A stretch of DNA of 64,000 nt from IMG/VR virus record IMGVR_UViG_2541047873_000001. One strand, 5' to 3'. The DNA comes from a virus. Its lineage: Duplodnaviria > Heunggongvirae > Uroviricota > Caudoviricetes. This document shows positions 1 to 20,037 of the stretch, piece after piece (within the stretch, counting starts at the first letter, position 1; each line of letters begins with the position of its first letter). Below the pieces are notes generated by a model that did no database searches, was not told the DNA's origin, and saw only the letters and a list, made by a program, of their open reading frames with translations. Position numbers and translations under genes: made by a program.

Positions 1-671
1 GGCACCGTGCAAATACATGCCCGGCAGGTTTAGTGCGTAAAGTGGTTTCAGCGAGAGCATTTTACGGAGTAAACGACAGTGACTTGAGCCACGGAAGGTC
101 TTTTTATGGTGTTCATTGATGATGATCTGGCAGTGAGTATGTTAAGTGGGCCAGGCTGCATCGGGTCATCATCAGTGCACATCCTCAACGTTAAGGAGGC
201 GCAGAGTTGGGTTTTCCTCTTATTTTGCTGACTCTGAGTCTCCTTAACGTTGCGGTAATGCACCTATGCGGATGTGGCCTTGCATTGTGTCTTGAAAGAA
301 TGGGGTAAGGCCGGGGATATTCCCAGGGGGAGGCACCCCCGCTGCAACGAACAGCCATAGACGGCAGTCGAGTGATGAAAACGTGAAAAGACTTTAAACC
401 TCGTTACGGCTGGCGTGGCAAACGCGACAACCGGGATAGGACGGTGACGGGCGGAGAGAGAGCCGCTTCAAGATAAAAGCCGACTATGGATTCCTTTCTG
501 CGGGCCTTTGAAAGTGAATCTTGCTCAGGCAGTCGGCTTTTATGTTGATACGTAGCGATAACCGCGACAGGCGCGGCGGTAAGTATGGCGGGGTTATTCC
601 TTCCCCGTTGAGGACACCGAGTTGCCAGGTTGACCATACGCCTAAGTGGCAATACCGCGAGTGGGATATTT

Positions 672-697
672 GCCCACCTTCGGGTGGGTGTTTTTTC
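672..697 (+). terminator. rho-independent terminator-like hairpin
   Basis: Stem cccacc/ggtggg with ttcg loop followed by a T6 run; ORF 521-736 reads through it so is probably not real. Confidence 0.5.
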
Positions 698-1157
698 AGT
701 GTTTTCGTCATGGTTAGCGACTTTGCGGCGGTTTAGAACCCGACCATTAAAGTAAATGCAAACGATGATCTGATGATGGTAGCGGCCTAAGAAGCCTGAC
801 GCCACGGGGTATGAGTCGTCCCCCGTCAAAAAATCGACCGCAGAGTGTCCCCGTCTGTGTATTAGGGAACGGGGAGGCATAACAGGCAAGGGCGCTGGTG
901 TGATTAACCAGATGAATGAGAAGGGTCAGGTCTTTCTGGTCAGCGCCCTTACCTGTTACGTCCCTCCCGCGTAACAGCCATTGGTTAATGGCTTTCTGGG
1001 ATAATGTCTTGTAACGGGTATATCCCGTCATGCTGAAGGCGCTAATCACGCTGGAAGCCAGGGTTATGCATCCCCTGTTACCGAATTGCAGCCAGGGCGC
1101 GGTGCGCCGAAAAGCATACGGAGGTGGAAGCCCTCGCCGGAGACGTACCCGGCAAGT

Positions 1158-1330: not shown

Positions 1331-1406
1331 GCCGGTTTAGCTCAGTTGGTAGAGCGCCTGCCTTGTAAGCAGGATGTCAGCGGTTCGAGTCCGTTAACCG
1401 GCACCA
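1331..1406 (+). tRNA. tRNA-Thr (anticodon TGT)
   Basis: Acceptor gccggtt/aaccggc, D-arm gctcagttggtagagc, anticodon stem cctgc/gcagg with loop cttgtaa, T-loop ttcgagt, encoded CCA. Confidence 0.8.
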
Positions 1407-1414
1407 ACACAACA

Positions 1415-1488
1415 GGTAAGGGTATTTTGCGACGTCGGAGATCGCCGAGCTTGGCAGAGGGTTCGAATCCCTACGAAGTACCCTTACC
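1415..1488 (+). ncRNA. tRNA-like element (degenerate tRNA or structured small RNA)
   Basis: Perfect 10 bp closing helix ggtaagggta/tacccttacc enclosing a D-arm-like hairpin (gcga..tcgc) and a canonical T-arm (aggg-ttcgaat-ccct), but no anticodon arm can be fitted. Confidence 0.3.
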
Positions 1489-1594
1489 GTTGTGATGAAT
1501 GCACAGGCTGATGTGCCGCAACTACAGTAGTGCGCGCTTTGCGGGGCTTGCTACAACCCTGTGTCGGAGTTCAGCACCGACCATCACAATCACT

Positions 1595-1681
1595 GGAGAG
1601 TAGGGAGCATGGTGCTCAAGCGGTCTTGAAAACCGTCCCATTGCGCAAGCGATGATGGTTCGATTCCATTACTCTCCGCCA
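1595..1681 (+). tRNA. tRNA-Ser (anticodon TGA), type II
   Basis: Acceptor ggagagt/actctcc, anticodon loop cttgaaa, long variable arm, T-arm atgg-ttcgatt-ccat, encoded CCA. Confidence 0.75.
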
Positions 1682-2110
1682 GCGCAACGTTAAGAGTATT
1701 TGGCTAATTAAGCGAATGCCGGAAGCAGAACCGGATCACCAAATGCGTACAGGCGTCATCGCCGCCCAGTCAGCCAAATGCTCTTACCATTGCGGTGAAT
1801 GCGGCTAAGCGCACGCGGAACAGTTAAAACAGTAAAGGTGGTCTTTTTACTGGCGTAACGAGAATCCATAAGTGATCCGGCGTTAATTGTTAACTGGTTA
1901 ACGTCACCGGGAGGCACCCGGCACCGCAACCTAACAGCAATGGCGTTTTGTCTTAAAAGGTGGCTGCAAGTGATGGATTTTTGGGCGTTTGCCGATAAAA
2001 ACCCGGAGTGGACATTATTGTTTCTGCTGGTGGTTGCATACGGGGTAGAGCAAGCGGCAAAAGCCTTACGCGGTTCTGGCAAAAAGCGTAAGCGTAATTA
2101 ACAGTAATCT

Positions 2111-2186
2111 GGCCCTTTAGCTCAGTGGTTAGAGCGGGCGACTCATAATCGCACGGTCACCGGTTCAAGTCCGGTAGGGGCCACCA
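2111..2186 (+). tRNA. tRNA with CAT anticodon, most likely tRNA-Ile2 (lysidine type) rather than Met
   Basis: Acceptor ggccctt/aggggcc, D-arm gctcagtggttagagc, anticodon loop ctcataa, T-loop ttcaagt; body closely resembles E. coli ileX-type tRNA; P1 also encodes a tRNA-Ile. Confidence 0.7.
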
Positions 2187-2638
2187 CATTTGGTTGTAAC
2201 ACGGCGTATGGCACATGCGTCGTTAGCGGTCTGGTGTAGCTGTTAGGTACCTTTTACTAACACTGCATGGGCACACCAGGTAGCCGGAATGTGCAAGCCC
2301 CGTTCATAGCGTCGGACTGCGGATTCACCATCCTGGCGATTCGGTGTGACAGCCGGAAGAGCACGGCGTACAACAGGAAAAGGCGTTTAATTAGCGTGAG
2401 CGCCGTTTCCGTTGTGGTAATTGCGGCTATGCGCTCGTGACGAAGCCATTTTCATTCACTACGTTCTGATAAGTGTCGTCGCCGGGCGTGGCTAACCTGG
2501 CAGGTGGAGGCACCACCGCCACAACTCCTTTCAATTCATCATATAGCCGCTCAGGCTGTAACCCTTAATTAATACGAAGTTACGACGTCACTACCGGTTC
2601 AGCCGGGGGATAGTCGCGCGTGTAAAAAAGGAGACGTT

Positions 2639-3214
2639 ATGTTAACGGCGAACGATAACGCGTATTTAGAAGATGATCTCGTTTTGAGTGACTTTATAGG
2701 GCGACGAGAATGCTGGACGCAAAAGCGCGAGGAGCTTTATGCAGCGTTAGTTCGTAAAGGCGTCAACATCGAAACCGCACAGAACGGTGATATGACAGTG
2801 GTAAGTGTTGGACTGCACGGCGTAAGTGTGTCAGCAATCAATCATGAGCCGTACATTGCGTTATCCGAGTCGATGGTAAGGTTAGTTAAGTTCCTGAAGT
2901 ACACAGAAGCGAATAACGTGCTCATCGCCAAAAAGAACATCCCGTTCTCATCGGCCTTTTACTGGATGATGAAGGGGCTTGATGCCCGGCGAACATCATG
3001 GCCTAAAGGGAGCTATATATCGATGCTCCGTGGCAGTGTTGGTAGCAAAGAAAAGCTCGTCGAATTCCTGCCGGAAGAGGCATTCGATATTGTTGAAGGT
3101 TGTGATGTGATGGTTATGCCTCGCCTGGTAATGATGAATGGGGATTTACAGGCGCAGACAGACTGGTTTGCAACTGGAGTTGATATTATCGCTACTGACT
3201 GGGAGGTTTTTTGA
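2639..3214 (+). CDS. hypothetical protein with DUF2829-like C-terminal domain
   Basis: 191 aa ORF; C-terminal half has W..G...RR.SWPKG and terminal TDWFATGVDIIATDWEV signature resembling DUF2829 (Tad2-type) domains. Confidence 0.5.
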   Translation: MLTANDNAYLEDDLVLSDFIGRRECWTQKREELYAALVRKGVNIETAQNGDMTVVSVGLHGVSVSAINHEPYIALSESMVRLVKFLKYTEANNVLIAKKNIPFSSAFYWMMKGLDARRTSWPKGSYISMLRGSVGSKEKLVEFLPEEAFDIVEGCDVMVMPRLVMMNGDLQAQTDWFATGVDIIATDWEVF

Positions 3215-3594
3215 TGTACGAGGCTACTAAATTACGCACTGAGGATGCGATGCACATTGGTTGGGACATCATCACCTGCAAGATAACATCATGCAAGGCT
3301 ACACGCACAGACGCCGGACACAAGAGCACAATATCAGGTTATGTCGTGATGTCAGTCAGGAGTGTGCGCATACGCTTCAGATGGAAAGCCAGCCAGGTTA
3401 CATCATCAATGCCGCTTACCGTCGAGCAGGATTATTTATGCTTACCCGAAATAGACGGAGCGTTGCTGGTGGGCAATAGTGGTCGAAAAGCCGATTTTGA
3501 AGCCAGTCTGAAGATGGCGCAGGCGGTGATCAACAAACATAAAGGGAAGTGGGAGGCAAAAGTTAAGCATGTTGTTCGTTTATCCCGCTGGTAG
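3211..3594 (+). CDS. hypothetical protein
   Basis: 127 aa ORF whose ATG overlaps the upstream stop (TGATG coupling); no recognisable domain. Confidence 0.35.
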   Translation: MMYEATKLRTEDAMHIGWDIITCKITSCKATRTDAGHKSTISGYVVMSVRSVRIRFRWKASQVTSSMPLTVEQDYLCLPEIDGALLVGNSGRKADFEASLKMAQAVINKHKGKWEAKVKHVVRLSRW

Positions 3595-18250: not shown

Positions 18251-19246
18251 TCAGTTATTGAACGTGATCACTCCGCGCTCGATGGCGAAGTCGAAAAGCT
18301 GGTTGGCGGCTACGTAAAGGCGTATGCCATGTGCTTTTTCCCATGCCCGGACATCGTTTTCTGCGCTTCTGGCGCATTCATCGCAAAGAGGAACGGCCCA
18401 GCGATCGTGTTCGTTTAACGAGCGGGCGCGGTACATGAACGGGTGATTAACTTTGCCTCCGCATCCGATGCACGGACGAGAAATCACAAACCGGAGATAA
18501 GCCGGGCTTTTACCGAGAACCGCTTTTGGTCGGCGCATATACAGCAGGCCGGAATCCTCATCTACAGACAGGTTGACGATCTGCTCTGCGGTTATGTCCA
18601 CCAGCTCACGGGTGCTGTGCTCCCAGGTGATATCCGATTCTTTCAGTGTGCCGGTAGGGATTTCCTGTTTTGGCTGACAAAATGCAATGCGACCGGCTTC
18701 ATCTGGCAGCTCGTCTTTCAGATTCCGGCGAATGGCCCAAAAAGTGAGTTCAACCATGCTCAGATCGCGTTCTGGCGGTAGTTTTAACTCGCTCGCAGCC
18801 CAGTTCATAACCCAGTTGGCACGATTCAGGGATAACTGGTCATCCAGCTTGCCGTACCCCTTCATCATGTATTCCGCATCATGCTTCCAGCACAGGCGAA
18901 CGGCAGAGCCGTTATAGAAATGAGTGGTTAGCTGGTGGCTGCAATCGCGCTTATCGTGCGCCTGGCAATCGTGGATATTGGAACTTACCCAATGAACAAG
19001 CGAATCTTCACCGCCTAATGCGTTAAATACGCGCTCGCTTTGAAAAAATGCTTTCAGAGACTGGTTGGCAACCAGCGAATAGTTCAGATCCACTACGCCA
19101 TCTGGCGTGTTTTCAGCCTGTTCGCGCGGAAGTGGAGAGATAATGAAACGGCGACCTGCGCCAATGTAGTTGCTGGTGGGCTTGTCTACCGGAAAGACAG
19201 CCACACCAGCTCCGTTTACGAAATGAGGTGTGATTATTGCACTCAT
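18251..19246 (-). CDS. DUF968 (YdfU-like) protein
   Basis: 331 aa; C-terminal Cys cluster RPCIGCGGKV...PLCDECA typical of lambdoid DUF968 proteins; first gene after an operator-like pair. Confidence 0.55.
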   Translation of the reverse strand: MSAIITPHFVNGAGVAVFPVDKPTSNYIGAGRRFIISPLPREQAENTPDGVVDLNYSLVANQSLKAFFQSERVFNALGGEDSLVHWVSSNIHDCQAHDKRDCSHQLTTHFYNGSAVRLCWKHDAEYMMKGYGKLDDQLSLNRANWVMNWAASELKLPPERDLSMVELTFWAIRRNLKDELPDEAGRIAFCQPKQEIPTGTLKESDITWEHSTRELVDITAEQIVNLSVDEDSGLLYMRRPKAVLGKSPAYLRFVISRPCIGCGGKVNHPFMYRARSLNEHDRWAVPLCDECARSAENDVRAWEKAHGIRLYVAANQLFDFAIERGVITFNN

Positions 19247-19288
19247 AATGTATACCGACTCTGTTTTGTTCCGAGCGGTAAAATAATA

Positions 19289-19319
19289 TGTTAGAAAATT
19301 AAAATCAATATTCTAACAC
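19289..19319. promoter_or_regulatory. pair of C1 operator-like sites
   Basis: tgttagaaaattaaaatcaatattctaacac: two inverted copies of the TTCTAACA core between two leftward operons. Confidence 0.5.
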
Positions 19320-19350
19320 GGTTATGAGTGCATAAACGATGTGTTCAGGA

Positions 19351-20037
19351 TTACGGCTGTCCTCCCTTCACCTGCTTTAGCGTCAGATTTCCGCAAAAAA
19401 CCGCGCCAGTGTCTATGTAGTGCTGGTTCCAGAAAGATTTCGGGCTGTTTACTGGCGTATGCCCGAAAATAAAGCTATCTGCACCAGTGATCATTCCACC
19501 AACACCATCAACCGCGTCATAAAATCGCTCACGCCGCCAGGTAACATTGAGATCGCTAACAGGTTTACCAAACTGGTATTCGTTATCAGGATAGTCGGCA
19601 TGGGCTATAACGATAGTTTTATGCCCGGTGTTCAACTCAATGATATAGGGTAAACGTCTTACCAGCTCCACCAGCGCCCTGGCTAATATTTCCCGATCAG
19701 CGTCCAGCATGAAGAACCATTGGCCGCCATTCATTAGCCAGTTATTCACGTTGCCTGCGGGGCTTAACGCATCGATCATTAATCGCTCGTGGTTTCCCAT
19801 AACCGACCGAAACCAGGGCATCTGCAATAGCTCCAGGCATTCAACATTTTCGGTGCCGCGATCGATAAGGTCGCCAACCGATATCAGTAAATCCTGTGTC
19901 GGGTCAAAGTCCACACGATGAAGTTCAGACATCAATCTGGTGTAGCAACCATGCAGATCACCAACAACCCATATGTTTCTGTAGCCTGAACCATCAATAC
20001 GGCTATATAAATTCACTTCATGCAGCGCCTGGGTCAT
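19351..20037 (-). CDS. Ser/Thr protein phosphatase (lambda PPase family)
   Basis: Metallophosphatase motifs GDLHG, GDLIDRG, GNHE from internal start MTQALHEV. Confidence 0.85.

Follow-up and report, generated by a model that had tools for sequence, protein, structure and literature searches.

The window analysed here, a stretch of 64,000 nucleotides, comes from a P1/D6-like phage-plasmid. Two of its five real tRNA genes, all of which encode CCA, are tRNA-Thr(UGU) (1331–1406) and tRNA-Ser(UGA) (1595–1681), both called by ARAGORN and by Rfam. Between them lie two structured elements, element 1 (1409–1493), which lies 2 nt past the 3′ end of tRNA-Thr, and element 2 (1489–1590), which is followed after 4 nt by tRNA-Ser. 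These genes and elements, like all features given below, are on the plus strand. A preliminary description had reported two elements here, closed by long-range helices and lacking a fittable anticodon arm. Both helices pair as it gave them, and neither ARAGORN nor the Rfam tRNA model (RF00005) accepts either element. With default settings ARAGORN made no call between the two tRNAs (1407–1594); relaxed to 60% thresholds it returned only nonsense calls with anticodons of 2 or 4 bases, and no tRNA or tmRNA call for the two elements was credible. RF00005 found nothing in 1407–1594 at E ≤ 10, and other Rfam families (C4, YrlA, IsrK and others) gave no meaningful match over the same interval.

Both elements lie in the part of the window that corresponds to the long ban operon leader of P1. 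In P1 the promoter of that operon is under the C1 operator; the window lacks this operator, and no promoter was found upstream of the array inside the window. The P1 stretch between E1 and E2, which holds most of plp, is missing from the window, and the P1 ORFs plp and upl, annotated antisense to the modules, gave no Pfam match above threshold. Other assignments were tried and rejected. A terminator or promoter role finds no basis in 1400–1600, which contains neither a U-tract terminator nor a promoter, and protein coding on either strand would be confined to ORFs of 22–68 aa in this part of the window. A hammerhead-like CUGAUG in hairpin P2 of element 2 lacks, by eye, the invariant A9, the motif being a covarying hairpin loop. 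An ERIC/REP-type repeat was considered because GTGAAT..CAGG is present, and the module ends differ from the ERIC palindrome.

Element 1 is a complete A-type module, that is, a closing helix with its cargo. The sequence ggtaagggta (1415–1424) pairs with tacccttacc (1479–1488), and the helix is actually 15 bp long: its 5′ strand, GGUAAGGGUAUUUUG (1415–1429), recovered as inverted repeat I6 and in the MFE fold, pairs with its 3′ strand, CGAAGUACCCUUACC (1474–1488), recovered in the fold, the inverted repeat and the family alignment. An outer extension pairs ACAAC (1409–1413) with GUUGU (1489–1493) and leaves A1414 bulged. Inside, the MFE fold places a small hairpin, UCGG-AGAUCG-CCGA (1435–1448), whose sequence is near-invariant in all E1-type cargos (P1-like, Uetakevirus and lambdoid contigs). 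A second, T-arm-like hairpin (1458–1472), seen in sequence and fold, has the stem AGGG/CCCU and the loop UUCGAAU, with GGGTTCGAATCCC at 1459–1471. Its loop fits UUCRANY and its 3′ strand joins the 3′ strand of helix A after a single base, as in tRNA; stacked on that strand, it is predicted to form an over-long acceptor/T minihelix. The third pair is U3-A70, not G3-U70, and no encoded or addable 3′ CCA follows the discriminator, the end reading ...CCCUUACC-GUUG. Compared to shuffled sequences, element 1 folds with z = −5.2, none of 200 shuffles being as good, and elements 1 and 2 folded together give z = −3.2. The plus strand of element 1 folds better than the other strand (−33.9 versus −26.1 kcal/mol) because of U-G wobbles.

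Element 1 belongs to a family. The A-type consensus, ACAAC-A-GGUAAGAGCAUUG ... CAGUGCUCUUUCC-GUUGU, surrounds an exchangeable cargo with a sequence-conserved closing helix of 13–21 bp that occurs in many compensatory variants. Covariance model R2, whose seed of 37 A-type units came from other phages and left out the window and every unit with the E1 cargo, matched element 1 at 49.4 bits (E 2.3e-12; 1409–1493, model positions 1–81), with no match on the minus strand. In the family alignment 93.2% of the helix A cells are paired, compared with 37–66% in slid controls, and both sides change in 9 of 18 pairs against 4.3 in shuffled alignments; the units had been found via a complement search, which bears on this pairing and was controlled by shuffling. 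A complementary strand scoring at least 20 lay upstream of 85 of 111 junctions, as opposed to 7 of 111 shuffled controls. Because many of the compared sequences are related by descent, shuffle controls such as these overstate significance. The helix around the E1 cargo changes in a compensatory manner, GCG/CGC, GGG/CCC and GAG/CUC all occurring around one same cargo, yet the cargo itself stays near-invariant in contigs of the P1-like, Uetakevirus and lambdoid groups. A pattern scan for this cargo returned mostly chance matches in GC-rich coding DNA, leaving about 12 distinct true E1-type units usable. T-arm-like hairpins are present in 11 of 70 distinct A cargos where shuffles predict 0.26, an enrichment of about 40-fold. 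The strand of action is also marked, since helix A has 75 G-U pairs and 18 A-C mismatches, and R2 scored the sense strand above the antisense strand by about 20–30 bits over 92 loci.

Element 2 is a complete B1-type module with a different architecture. The sequence ttgtgatg (1490–1497) pairs with catcacaa (1582–1589), and the closing helix P1, supported by fold, family and covariance model R1, runs from GUUGUGAUG (1489–1497) to CAUCACAAU (1582–1590); GUUGU is common to its 5′ strand and to the outer extension of element 1. Hairpin P2, GCACA-GGCUGA-UGUGC (1501–1516), with loop L2 at 1506–1511, is followed by a central variable domain, the cargo (1517–1562), and by hairpin P3, GUCGG-AGUUCAGCA-CCGAC (1563–1581; GTCGG-AGTTCAGCA-CCGAC as DNA), with loop L3 at 1568–1576 and a 3′ strand contiguous with that of P1. 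No 3′ CCA follows, the end reading ...CAUCACAAU-CACU. By energy alone element 2 is unexceptional (z = −1.0 to −1.6 versus shuffles). For both elements the comparative evidence is decisive. R1, built from 25 B1 units of other phages with the window and all units sharing the element 2 cargo left out, matched it at 73.3 bits (E 1.5e-14; 1489–1590, model positions 1–116). P2, which was no selection criterion, is paired in 99% of family cells, with both sides changing in three of five pairs (GCGCA/UGCGC, GCACA/UGUGC, UCGCA/UGCGA and GCGUA/UACGU). P3 is 100% paired and likewise changes on both sides in three of five pairs, figures that, like those for P1, are inflated because both pairings selected the counted B units, full P3 pairing having been a selection criterion. 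The cargo itself is otherwise unalignable between B1 units; where other phages carry the element 2 cargo, its inner helix is compensated, CCGCAA/UUGCGG in the window becoming CCAUGA/UCAUGG in L093 and L115.

The two hairpin loops covary as well. GCUGA in L2 (1507–1511) can pair with UCAGC in L3 (1571–1575), and this pairing, again no selection criterion, is kept in 97% of family cells, with both sides changing in three of five pairs (GUCGA/UCGAC in L078 and L112, ACUGA/UCAGU in L006); independent changes in P2 and in the L2–L3 pairing are few, at 2–4 sequences each. The order of helices in element 2 is that of tRNA: P1 is at the place of the acceptor stem, P2, three bases later, at that of the D arm, the variable central domain at that of the anticodon arm, and P3 is the counterpart of the T arm. 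We propose, from the covariation, that a 5-bp Watson–Crick loop–loop kiss replaces the D-loop/T-loop elbow. The tRNA flavour noted in the preliminary description is thus borne out by the acceptor-like helix and canonical T-arm of element 1 and by the cloverleaf-like helix order of element 2. T-arm-like hairpins had been claimed for both elements, and this stands for element 1 only: the corresponding hairpin of element 2 has no T-loop because the loop of P3, AGUUCAGCA, is 9 nt long.

The same evidence bears on the suggestion of tRNA genes in decay, with both elements as pseudogenes that drift among working tRNAs. Their place inside a tRNA cluster and the canonical GGTTCGAATCC T-arm of element 1 would suit this, as would some A cargos of 85–87 nt in Klebsiella phages Magnus and KP591P3 that resemble whole long-arm tRNAs. 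However, no tRNA is called at relaxed thresholds and element 2 has no T-loop; both elements are conserved through compensatory changes across unrelated phage families, and both score at full length in non-tRNA family models, two in all. We regard this reading as close to refuted. The resemblance to tRNA (RF00005) is real in that the element 1 T-arm is contiguous with the 3′ strand of the terminal helix, and in that element 2 has acceptor, D, central and T helices in order with a loop–loop contact; both elements presumably share a transcript, as they do the strand, with real tRNAs. Unlike tRNA, element 1 has neither an anticodon arm nor a D arm and closes with a terminal helix of 15–21 bp, element 2 closes with 9 bp and lacks a T-loop, and neither ends in CCA.

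Modules of these kinds are not confined to the gap between the two tRNAs: elsewhere the window contains at least three further A-type and two further B-type modules. An A-type module following the tmRNA-like tag module described below (879–959; inverted repeat I3) scores on both strands (R2 33.5 bits on plus, 34.2 on minus) because its helix is nearly palindromic. A further A-type module has a short cargo (2370–2415; R2 38.8 bits, E 3e-9), and a diverged A-like module (GUUAAGAGUAUUUGGCU ... AGCCAAAUGCUCUUACC; 1680–1797) was recognized by eye and as inverted repeat I2, and is missed by R2. A B2-type module, STnc100-like, occupies 1789–1930 (Rfam STnc100 40.8 bits over 1791–1928, gathering threshold 47; R1 26.7 bits, E 4e-4). 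A second B2-like module lies at 2411–2525 (R1 18.1 bits, E 0.03), with the GGAGGCACC motif found by eye.

R1 aligns end to end with both STnc100-like units of the window, at 26.7 and 18.1 bits. STnc100 (RF02076) gave no match on element 2 at E ≤ 10, its gathering threshold being 47 bits, and the relationship is therefore distant; a true STnc100 match is present in Klebsiella phage Magnus (52.9 bits). STnc100 has been detected as RNA (PMC12370729), PasD is a Northern-verified, Hfq-dependent sRNA (PMC8550237), both are Hfq-associated sRNAs in the literature (PMC8550237, PMC12370729), and the two are structurally related (10.64898/2026.05.13.724894). Element 2 shares with them the type of closing helix (UGGUGAAU ... 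GCACCA), a hairpin 3–4 nt past the 5′ strand, a last hairpin abutting the 3′ strand, and the same niches, namely prophage leaders, downstream of stx or dicF. It differs in the loops of P2 (GGCUGA) and P3 (AGAUCAGCA) and in their kiss, which are B1-specific, and in lacking a terminator-like U tract. Element 2 is a distant relative of the prophage sRNA STnc100.

At least 120 IMG/VR contigs carry the A+B junction motif, as do 160 phage records spread over five or more unrelated lineages; lambdoid, P1-like, N4-like, Vi01-like and other virulent siphophage genomes are among them. The units occupy the interval from Q/PR′ to holin, that from cI to the early-left genes, the P1 ban leader and tRNA islands, always on the transcribed strand of such leader regions or islands. 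A tRNA lies within 1 kb of 21 of the 83 A+B units found elsewhere, and all 21 tRNAs are on the strand of the unit. A junction of 41 nt is at least 95% identical in otherwise unrelated phages.

Such a junction could also be read at the DNA level, the conserved linkers (ACAACAGGTAAGAGC..., ...CTCTTTCCGTTGTGGTGAATGC) serving as recombination joints for cassette swaps and the hairpins being incidental or acting in single-stranded DNA. The near-identity of the junction fits this, as does the behaviour of elements 1 and 2 as independent cassettes: E1 is present in P1, D6 and RCS47 and absent from Ro157c2YLVW, and E2 is present in P1, RCS47 and Ro157c2YLVW and absent from D6. In addition, the gap between E1 and E2 is about 230 nt in P1 and about 425 nt in RCS47, with breakpoints in the shared GTTGTGATGAA linker. 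In contrast, the helix variants are compensatory without conservation of sequence, G-U pairs are about four times as frequent as A-C mismatches, covariance-model scores are strongly strand-asymmetric, orientation follows transcription in every case, and loop–loop covariation has no rationale in DNA. Repeated linkers are expected to recombine as a side effect, and this does not have to be what they are for. We therefore consider a DNA-level function very unlikely.

A more serious alternative, which we hold to be possible if unlikely, is that the modules act purely in cis as processing or insulating signals, through which RNase III, RNase E or RNase P would cleave the long leader neatly and adjacent tRNAs, sRNAs and mRNAs would fold on their own, the excised pieces being waste. 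They lie tight against the tRNA ends, at 2 and 4 nt; the A helix, at about 20 bp, is of RNase III size; the cargos are mostly hypervariable; and the host leaders of the modules also yield DicF-like sRNA. Against this, E1 and E2 cargos are kept across unrelated phages while their helices covary, T-arms are enriched in A cargos, and the conserved B1 loops, engaged in a tertiary kiss, exceed the needs of a cleavage site. Moreover, 75% of the units have no nearby tRNA, and the relatives STnc100 and PasD act as Hfq-bound sRNAs (PMC8550237).

Upstream of both elements, the window carries a tmRNA-like tag module (703–840; Rfam tmRNA_permuted 24.1 bits). Its tag frame comprises ten codons, GCA AAC GAU ..., encoding ANDDLMMVAA (758–787), with the stop at 788–790, and in a hairpin at 804–826 the loop GUCG (815–818) pairs with CGAC (835–838). 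The module was also found in P1, HK633 and several virulent phages. Over 40 loci the frame, AN(D/E)x....(A/V)A*, takes ten variants and indels stay in frame. The second stem of the downstream pseudoknot is 100% paired, with both sides changing in all four pairs; for a pseudoknot proposed upstream of the tag the support is weak, with 83% pairing and without compensatory changes. Like tmRNA, the module has a resume codon GCA followed by AAC GAx, a 10-residue tag ending in (A/V)A, a stop codon within a hairpin and an H-type pseudoknot just downstream. Unlike tmRNA, it has no G3-U70 acceptor stem, T-arm or CCA of its own: ARAGORN, at default settings and at 90%, found no such tRNA-like domain, and the Rfam tmRNA scores in three unrelated phages are 24–33 bits, below the gathering scores of 47–50. 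An acceptor-stem partner for the 5′ end of the KP591P3 tag module was also sought, and not found. A literature search gave no match for the tag peptides or for the module sequence strings.

Element 1 could be the tRNA-like partner of this module, the two forming a phage trans-translation device or a decoy for SmpB/tmRNA. The conserved tag frame and covarying pseudoknot of the 40 loci usually lie 118–127 nt upstream of an A module, an E1-type cargo directly follows the tag module in L019 and directly precedes it in L141, in Magnus and KP591P3 ARAGORN at low threshold joins the tag to the T-arm of the A cargo that follows, and the third pair position of the consensus A helix is non-Watson–Crick. 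However, that pair is U3-A70 and not G3-U70 in element 1, which has no CCA and a stem of the 15–21 bp class. In the window about 650 nt and three tRNAs separate element 1 from the tag upstream of it, and element 1 is not physically tied to the tag because its helix is self-contained. The tag-adjacent A module has no T-arm in P1 or in the window, A modules beside tags mostly lack one, and neither ARAGORN at default nor Rfam at gathering score calls a tmRNA. A partnership of element 1 with the tag module is accordingly highly improbable.

Altogether, the reading we prefer, with a probability of roughly 0.55, is that both elements are conserved non-coding RNA modules with a function, processed from the tRNA transcript, and not relics of tRNAs. 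Both would be transcribed with the tRNAs as one precursor, and be released by the RNase P cut 5′ of tRNA-Ser together with trimming of the tRNA-Thr 3′ trailer; RNase III or RNase E acting at the A helix of about 20 bp may part element 1 from element 2. Recognition of the modules themselves by RNase P or the CCA enzyme in the canonical way is doubtful because their stems have 15–21 bp (A) or 9 bp (B) instead of the 7 bp of tRNA and carry no CCA. Since helices bury both of their ends, the elements are predicted to last as stable RNAs. The scaffolds may serve as folding, processing and stability cassettes, and perhaps as handles for proteins or enzymes, and the effector role could fall to the variable cargos, as in STnc100 and PasD, their Hfq-bound relatives.

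Comparable phage RNAs are known. The species 1 and 2 RNAs of T4 are stable RNAs co-transcribed with phage tRNAs; the C4 RNA of P1 and P7 is processed by RNase P, and cleavage by RNase III/E and RNase P gives rise to DicF and P1 C4 RNA. The T4 and C4 RNAs resemble the modules as small structured RNAs in or near tRNA or leader transcripts that are freed by tRNA-processing enzymes; they differ in that no sequence or model match was found, and in that the modules form A/B arrays with exchangeable cargos in many phage families. In the bacterial Y RNA YrlA, too, a long terminal stem bears a tRNA-like module that has a T-arm and lacks an anticodon. Unlike YrlA, the elements have no D arm, and the sole Rfam match to this family (16.8 bits, gathering 69) lies over real tRNAs at 1299–1355.

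A wider reading, which we offer as speculative and rather improbable, is that elements 1 and 2 are cassettes of an undescribed, horizontally spread 'RNA island' grammar of enterobacterial phages that manipulates host translation or RNA surveillance. Such a grammar would combine A, B and tag modules, tRNAs and DicF-type sRNAs on one transcript. The tag module, devoid of a tRNA-like domain, would be a phage-encoded template or decoy for trans-translation, and T-arm-bearing A modules, element 1 among them, would offer RNase P, TruB/TrmA, SmpB or EF-Tu a tRNA-like handle.

In phage genomes, tRNA clusters and long leaders are usually annotated as tRNAs and empty spacer, or with doubtful ORFs such as plp and upl of P1. 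Our analysis shows that such 'spacers' are made of a limited set of conserved, covarying RNA scaffolds whose interiors can be exchanged, and which temperate as well as virulent phages of Escherichia, Klebsiella, Salmonella, Enterobacter, Erwinia, Hafnia and Edwardsiella share. This places prophage sRNAs such as STnc100 and PasD in a structural and evolutionary frame, accounts for the mosaic rearrangements of these regions, and predicts many unrecognised stable RNAs during lytic growth. In addition, with the tag module the old link between tmRNA and the growth of lambdoid phages could become open to direct test.

The preliminary description had read two elements between tRNA-Thr and tRNA-Ser as degenerate tRNA-like hairpins, and all the closing helices and hairpins it listed were found in the window sequence. 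The closing helix of element 1 (1409-1493) is longer than first noted, comprising 15 bp (1415-1429/1474-1488) plus ACAAC/GUUGU (1409-1413/1489-1493), and the element carries GGGTTCGAATCCC at 1459-1471. Element 2 (1489-1590) is closed by GUUGUGAUG/CAUCACAAU (1489-1497/1582-1590). ARAGORN called five plus-strand tRNAs in the window, tRNA-Arg (1158-1234), tRNA-Tyr (1240-1326), tRNA-Thr (1331-1406), tRNA-Ser (1595-1681) and tRNA-Met/Ile2 (2111-2186), and none within 1407-1594; Rfam gave no tRNA match to either element at E<=10. Lowering the ARAGORN thresholds to 60% yielded nothing but calls whose anticodons had 2 or 4 bases; neither element is a tRNA. By folding energy element 1 stands out (z = -5.2), and U-G pairs make it fold better on the plus strand than on the other strand (-33.9 versus -26.1 kcal/mol). 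Element 2 alone is unexceptional (z = -1.0 to -1.6); folded jointly, the two elements reach z = -3.2.

Side-by-side reading of related loci showed two module types alternating in inter-tRNA DNA. Type A has the form ACAAC-A-GGTAAGAGCATTG, a variable interior (the cargo) and CAGTGCTCTTTCC-GTTGT. Type B follows directly, as GTTGTGGTG-AAT-GCGCA-GGCTGA-TGCGC, a variable interior and GCCGG-AGATCAGCA-CCGGC-CACCACAAC. The A/B junction (CCGTTGYGRTGAATGC) has at least 120 matches in IMG/VR, and a 41-nt junction probe matched 160 phage records. Its carriers include the lambdoid phages HK633, HK629 and mEp460, P1-like phages, the N4-like Gamaleyavirus IME11, the Klebsiella Taipeivirus Magnus, and siphophages of Klebsiella, Erwinia, Hafnia and Edwardsiella.

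The type A helix is supported by covariation. At 85 of 111 distinct junctions, the 13 nt preceding GTTG find a complement 20-230 nt upstream that scores at least 20 of 26, compared with 7 of 111 shuffled controls, none of which exceeded 20. Compensatory versions include GGTAAGCCAAATC/GATTTGGCTTTCC, GGTAAGCTGCTTG/CAGGCAGCTTTCC and GGAAATCGCTTTG/CAAAGCGATCCCC. In a 37-sequence alignment, 93% of cells are paired (37-66% in slid controls), and both partners vary at 9 of 18 pairs, versus 4.3 in shuffles. G-U pairs outnumber A-C mismatches (75 versus 18), and a covariance-model search of 92 loci scores the sense strand ~20-30 bits above the antisense, indicating that the folded species is plus-strand RNA. 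Built without the window and without any unit carrying the cargo of element 1, the type A model recovered 1409-1493 at 49.4 bits (E 2e-12) and also matched 2370-2415 and 879-959. The A helices of all arrays (for example L017, L042 and L128, the last being HK633) share one consensus sequence, which makes the 3' strand of each A module complementary as well to the 5' strand of the A module that follows (1474-1488 versus 1686-1700 in the window). An alternative pairing register could thus enclose the intervening B or tmRNA-like module, a possible reason for conservation of the helix in sequence, beyond structure alone.

The cargo of element 1 consists of a hairpin (UCGG-AGAUCG-CCGA), a variable linker and a T-arm (AGGG-UUCGAAU-CCCU). 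It recurs nearly unaltered in P1-like, Uetakevirus and lambdoid contigs while the three inner helix pairs around it differ (UUG/CGA, GCG/CGC, GGG/CCC, GAG/CUC), which argues that the cargo is under purifying selection. Of 70 distinct A cargos, 11 contain a T-arm-like hairpin, taken as U[U/G]C[A/G]ANN enclosed by a stem of 4 bp or longer (0.26 expected from shuffles); among 37 B cargos there are 0. Such hairpins adjoin either the 3' strand of the helix, in the manner of a tRNA and as in element 1, or the 5' strand.

The type B1 structure, to which element 2 belongs, was assessed on an alignment of the terminal parts of 39 distinct B1 units, their central domains being left out. Pairing over the complete structure reaches 97.5%, and there are 11 double-sided pair changes versus 2.2 in shuffles. 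Stems P1 and P3 were selection criteria, so their high pairing is partly circular; stem P2 and the loop-loop contact were not. P2 is 99% paired, and the proposed pairing of loops L2 (GCUGA) and L3 (UCAGC) is 97% paired, each with compensatory changes at 3 of 5 pairs, few sequences lying behind these events. Loop variants are GUCGA/UCGAC, at two loci (L078 and L112), and ACUGA/UCAGU in CMS-2020a. A B1 model from which the window and units carrying the cargo of element 2 had been excluded matched 1489-1590 at 73.3 bits (E 1.5e-14), followed by 1789-1930 (26.7 bits) and 2411-2525 (18.1 bits). Since the first of these secondary matches also gives a sub-threshold Rfam STnc100 match (1791-1928, 40.8 versus 47 bits), B1 is taken as a sister type to STnc100. 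Of these relatives, STnc100 has been detected as RNA (PMC12370729), and PasD, a Northern-verified, Hfq-dependent sRNA (PMC8550237), is structurally related to STnc100 (10.64898/2026.05.13.724894).

B1 resembles tRNA in its order of P1, 3 nt, P2, central domain and a P3 contiguous with the 3' strand of P1, and in the contact between the loops of P2 and P3, but it differs in the 9-bp length of P1, in an L3 that does not form a T-loop and in lacking CCA. The tRNA likeness originally proposed therefore survives as the helix order of element 2, whereas the supposed degeneracy does not: both elements are intact members of conserved module families. That they are tRNA genes in decay is contradicted by the conservation of both, and we consider it barely credible.

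In a search with window 1400-1600, element 1 was found in P1, D6 and RCS47 but not in vB_EcoM-Ro157c2YLVW; the Enterobacter phage BUCT554, an unrelated Uetakevirus, has it too, at 85% identity. Element 2 was found in P1, RCS47, Ro157c2YLVW and CMS-2020a but not in D6. Other modules separate the two by ~230 nt in P1 and ~425 nt in RCS47, breakpoints fall in the common linker GTTGTGATGAA, and only 3 of 614 matching plasmids carry the direct fusion seen in the window as one 100% match. Judged from these sequences, elements 1 and 2 are separate cassettes. Recombination at the linkers clearly occurs, as it would if the elements were DNA-level recombination joints; the strand bias and the loop-loop covariation make that explanation highly improbable.

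HK633 carries the unit between PR'/qut and the holin gene; its place is after a Q-like antiterminator and before holin in several IMG/VR contigs, and after a CI-like repressor in the early-left direction in others. It falls within a 2-kb ORF-free stretch holding tRNAs in IME11 and adjoins tRNA clusters in Magnus and KP591P3. A tRNA lies within 1 kb of 21 of 83 A+B junctions and is on the same strand in 21 of 21, so the modules are not tied to tRNAs but are always co-oriented with transcription. The IME11 island (1480-3570; notable parts 2710-2775 and 2780-2870) also holds a short tRNA-like RNA that resembles the tRNA-like domain of tmRNA: its acceptor stem has 7 bp, it has a T-arm and an ACCA end, and only ~30 nt stand in place of the D and anticodon arms. 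A further element there bears a T-arm, and one tRNA has an unusual anticodon loop. KP591P3 2191-2885 is a compact RNA-only operon flanked by protein genes on the other strand; behind a near-consensus promoter (TTGACA-17-TAGATT) come a tmRNA-like module, an A module whose 85-nt cargo includes a T-arm, a B1 module, tRNA-Ser, tRNA-Arg and tRNA-Met.

The first 3 kb of the window align with Escherichia phage D6 at 91% identity and 85% coverage and, piecewise, with P1, P7, RCS47 and many P1-like phage-plasmids. In P1 the counterpart is the long ban operon leader, which starts at the P1ban/P2ban promoters, overlapping the C1 operator Op72, and continues through a 'dicF-like region', tRNA-Asn, tRNA-Thr, plp and upl on the opposite strand, tciABC, tRNA-Ile(CAU) and ban. 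Annotated plp and upl (NC_005856, 1973-2542, minus strand) run antisense to A and B modules and lack Pfam support, and among P1-like phages they are not preserved but disrupted by cassette differences; they are probably not genes. Over the window elements there are only ORFs of 22-68 aa.

The 'dicF-like region' of P1 is a conserved structured block that spans 562-658 in the window, where it shares 92% identity with the block preceding DicF in phage Tritos (regions concerned: window 562-700, Tritos 3001-3318); next to it, at the DicF position, the window has another small RNA, which ends in a terminator of its own (671-690). The unannotated dicF-dicB gap of Tritos is an STnc100-type B module, and annotation comparison finds the gap of K-12 Qin (19043-19609 of its locus) likewise without annotation. 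Upstream, window 170-350 contains a further A-like inverted repeat (170-207/231-268) and a B2-like (STnc100-like) unit ending GGGAGGCACCCCCGCUGCAAC at ~249-348, so the array begins near the window edge. A promoter for it was not located in the window. The tRNA-Ser(UGA) at 1594-1678 scores higher with the Rfam tRNA-Sec model (44.6 bits; gathering score 47) than with the general tRNA model, probably just an effect of its long variable arm; tRNAscan-SE left the amino acid of its D6 counterpart unassigned.

A weak Rfam tmRNA_permuted match (window 648-790) has similar weak counterparts directly upstream of the A+B units in IME11 and Magnus, and all three carry UAAAU-GCA-AAC-GAU-GAU. This tmRNA-like module (window 703-840; P1 ~1390-1530; HK633 ~2240-2400; IME11 ~2260-2430; Magnus ~2215-2395; KP591P3 ~2233-2398) encodes ANDDLMMVAA-stop in the window (758-790) and ANDDVVLMAA with two stops in IME11 and Magnus. 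The frame AN(D/E)x....(A/V)A-stop occurs at 40 loci in ten variants, including ANEEMYLAVA, ANDEQFLAVA and ANEEVYLAVA, always with 10 codons and in-frame differences, usually 118-127 nt before the A module in the B-module slot. The stop codon lies within a hairpin, followed by an H-type pseudoknot whose second stem is 100% paired, with 4 of 4 pairs changing on both sides (CCGA/UCGG, CCAG/CUGG, CCAA/UUGG, GUCG/CGAC). A tRNA-like domain with G3-U70 and CCA was not found in the module, which had no ARAGORN call at default settings and Rfam scores below gathering thresholds; we found no description of such tag peptides or modules in the literature. Element 1 could be imagined as its functional partner, and cargo of the same type adjoins the tag module in two lambdoid contigs, but in the window the two lie 650 nt apart and element 1 has U3-A70 and no CCA, which leaves the pairing very doubtful.

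The structures of the elements, their strand, the conservation of scaffold and individual cargos, and their leader/tRNA-island context are established. Elements 1 and 2 would be transcribed together with the neighbouring tRNAs, and a ~185-nt piece with both ends locked in helices would be freed once RNase P cleaves at 1594/1595 and the tRNA-Thr trailer is trimmed. The A helix, at ~20 bp, could plausibly be cut by RNase III. GUUGU (1489-1493) may pair with ACAAC of element 1 or inside P1 of element 2, and the two would thereby be structurally coupled. Pure processing or insulator signals are the less likely account, given the conserved cargos and the tertiary contact in B1. For the same reasons we favor stable scaffolded RNAs with effector cargos, at a probability of roughly 0.55. 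We conclude, from comparative sequence evidence, that elements 1 and 2 belong, as intact members, to two conserved structured-RNA module families that build phage RNA islands; the A and B1 types are apparently undescribed so far, with STnc100 as a distant described relative of B1.
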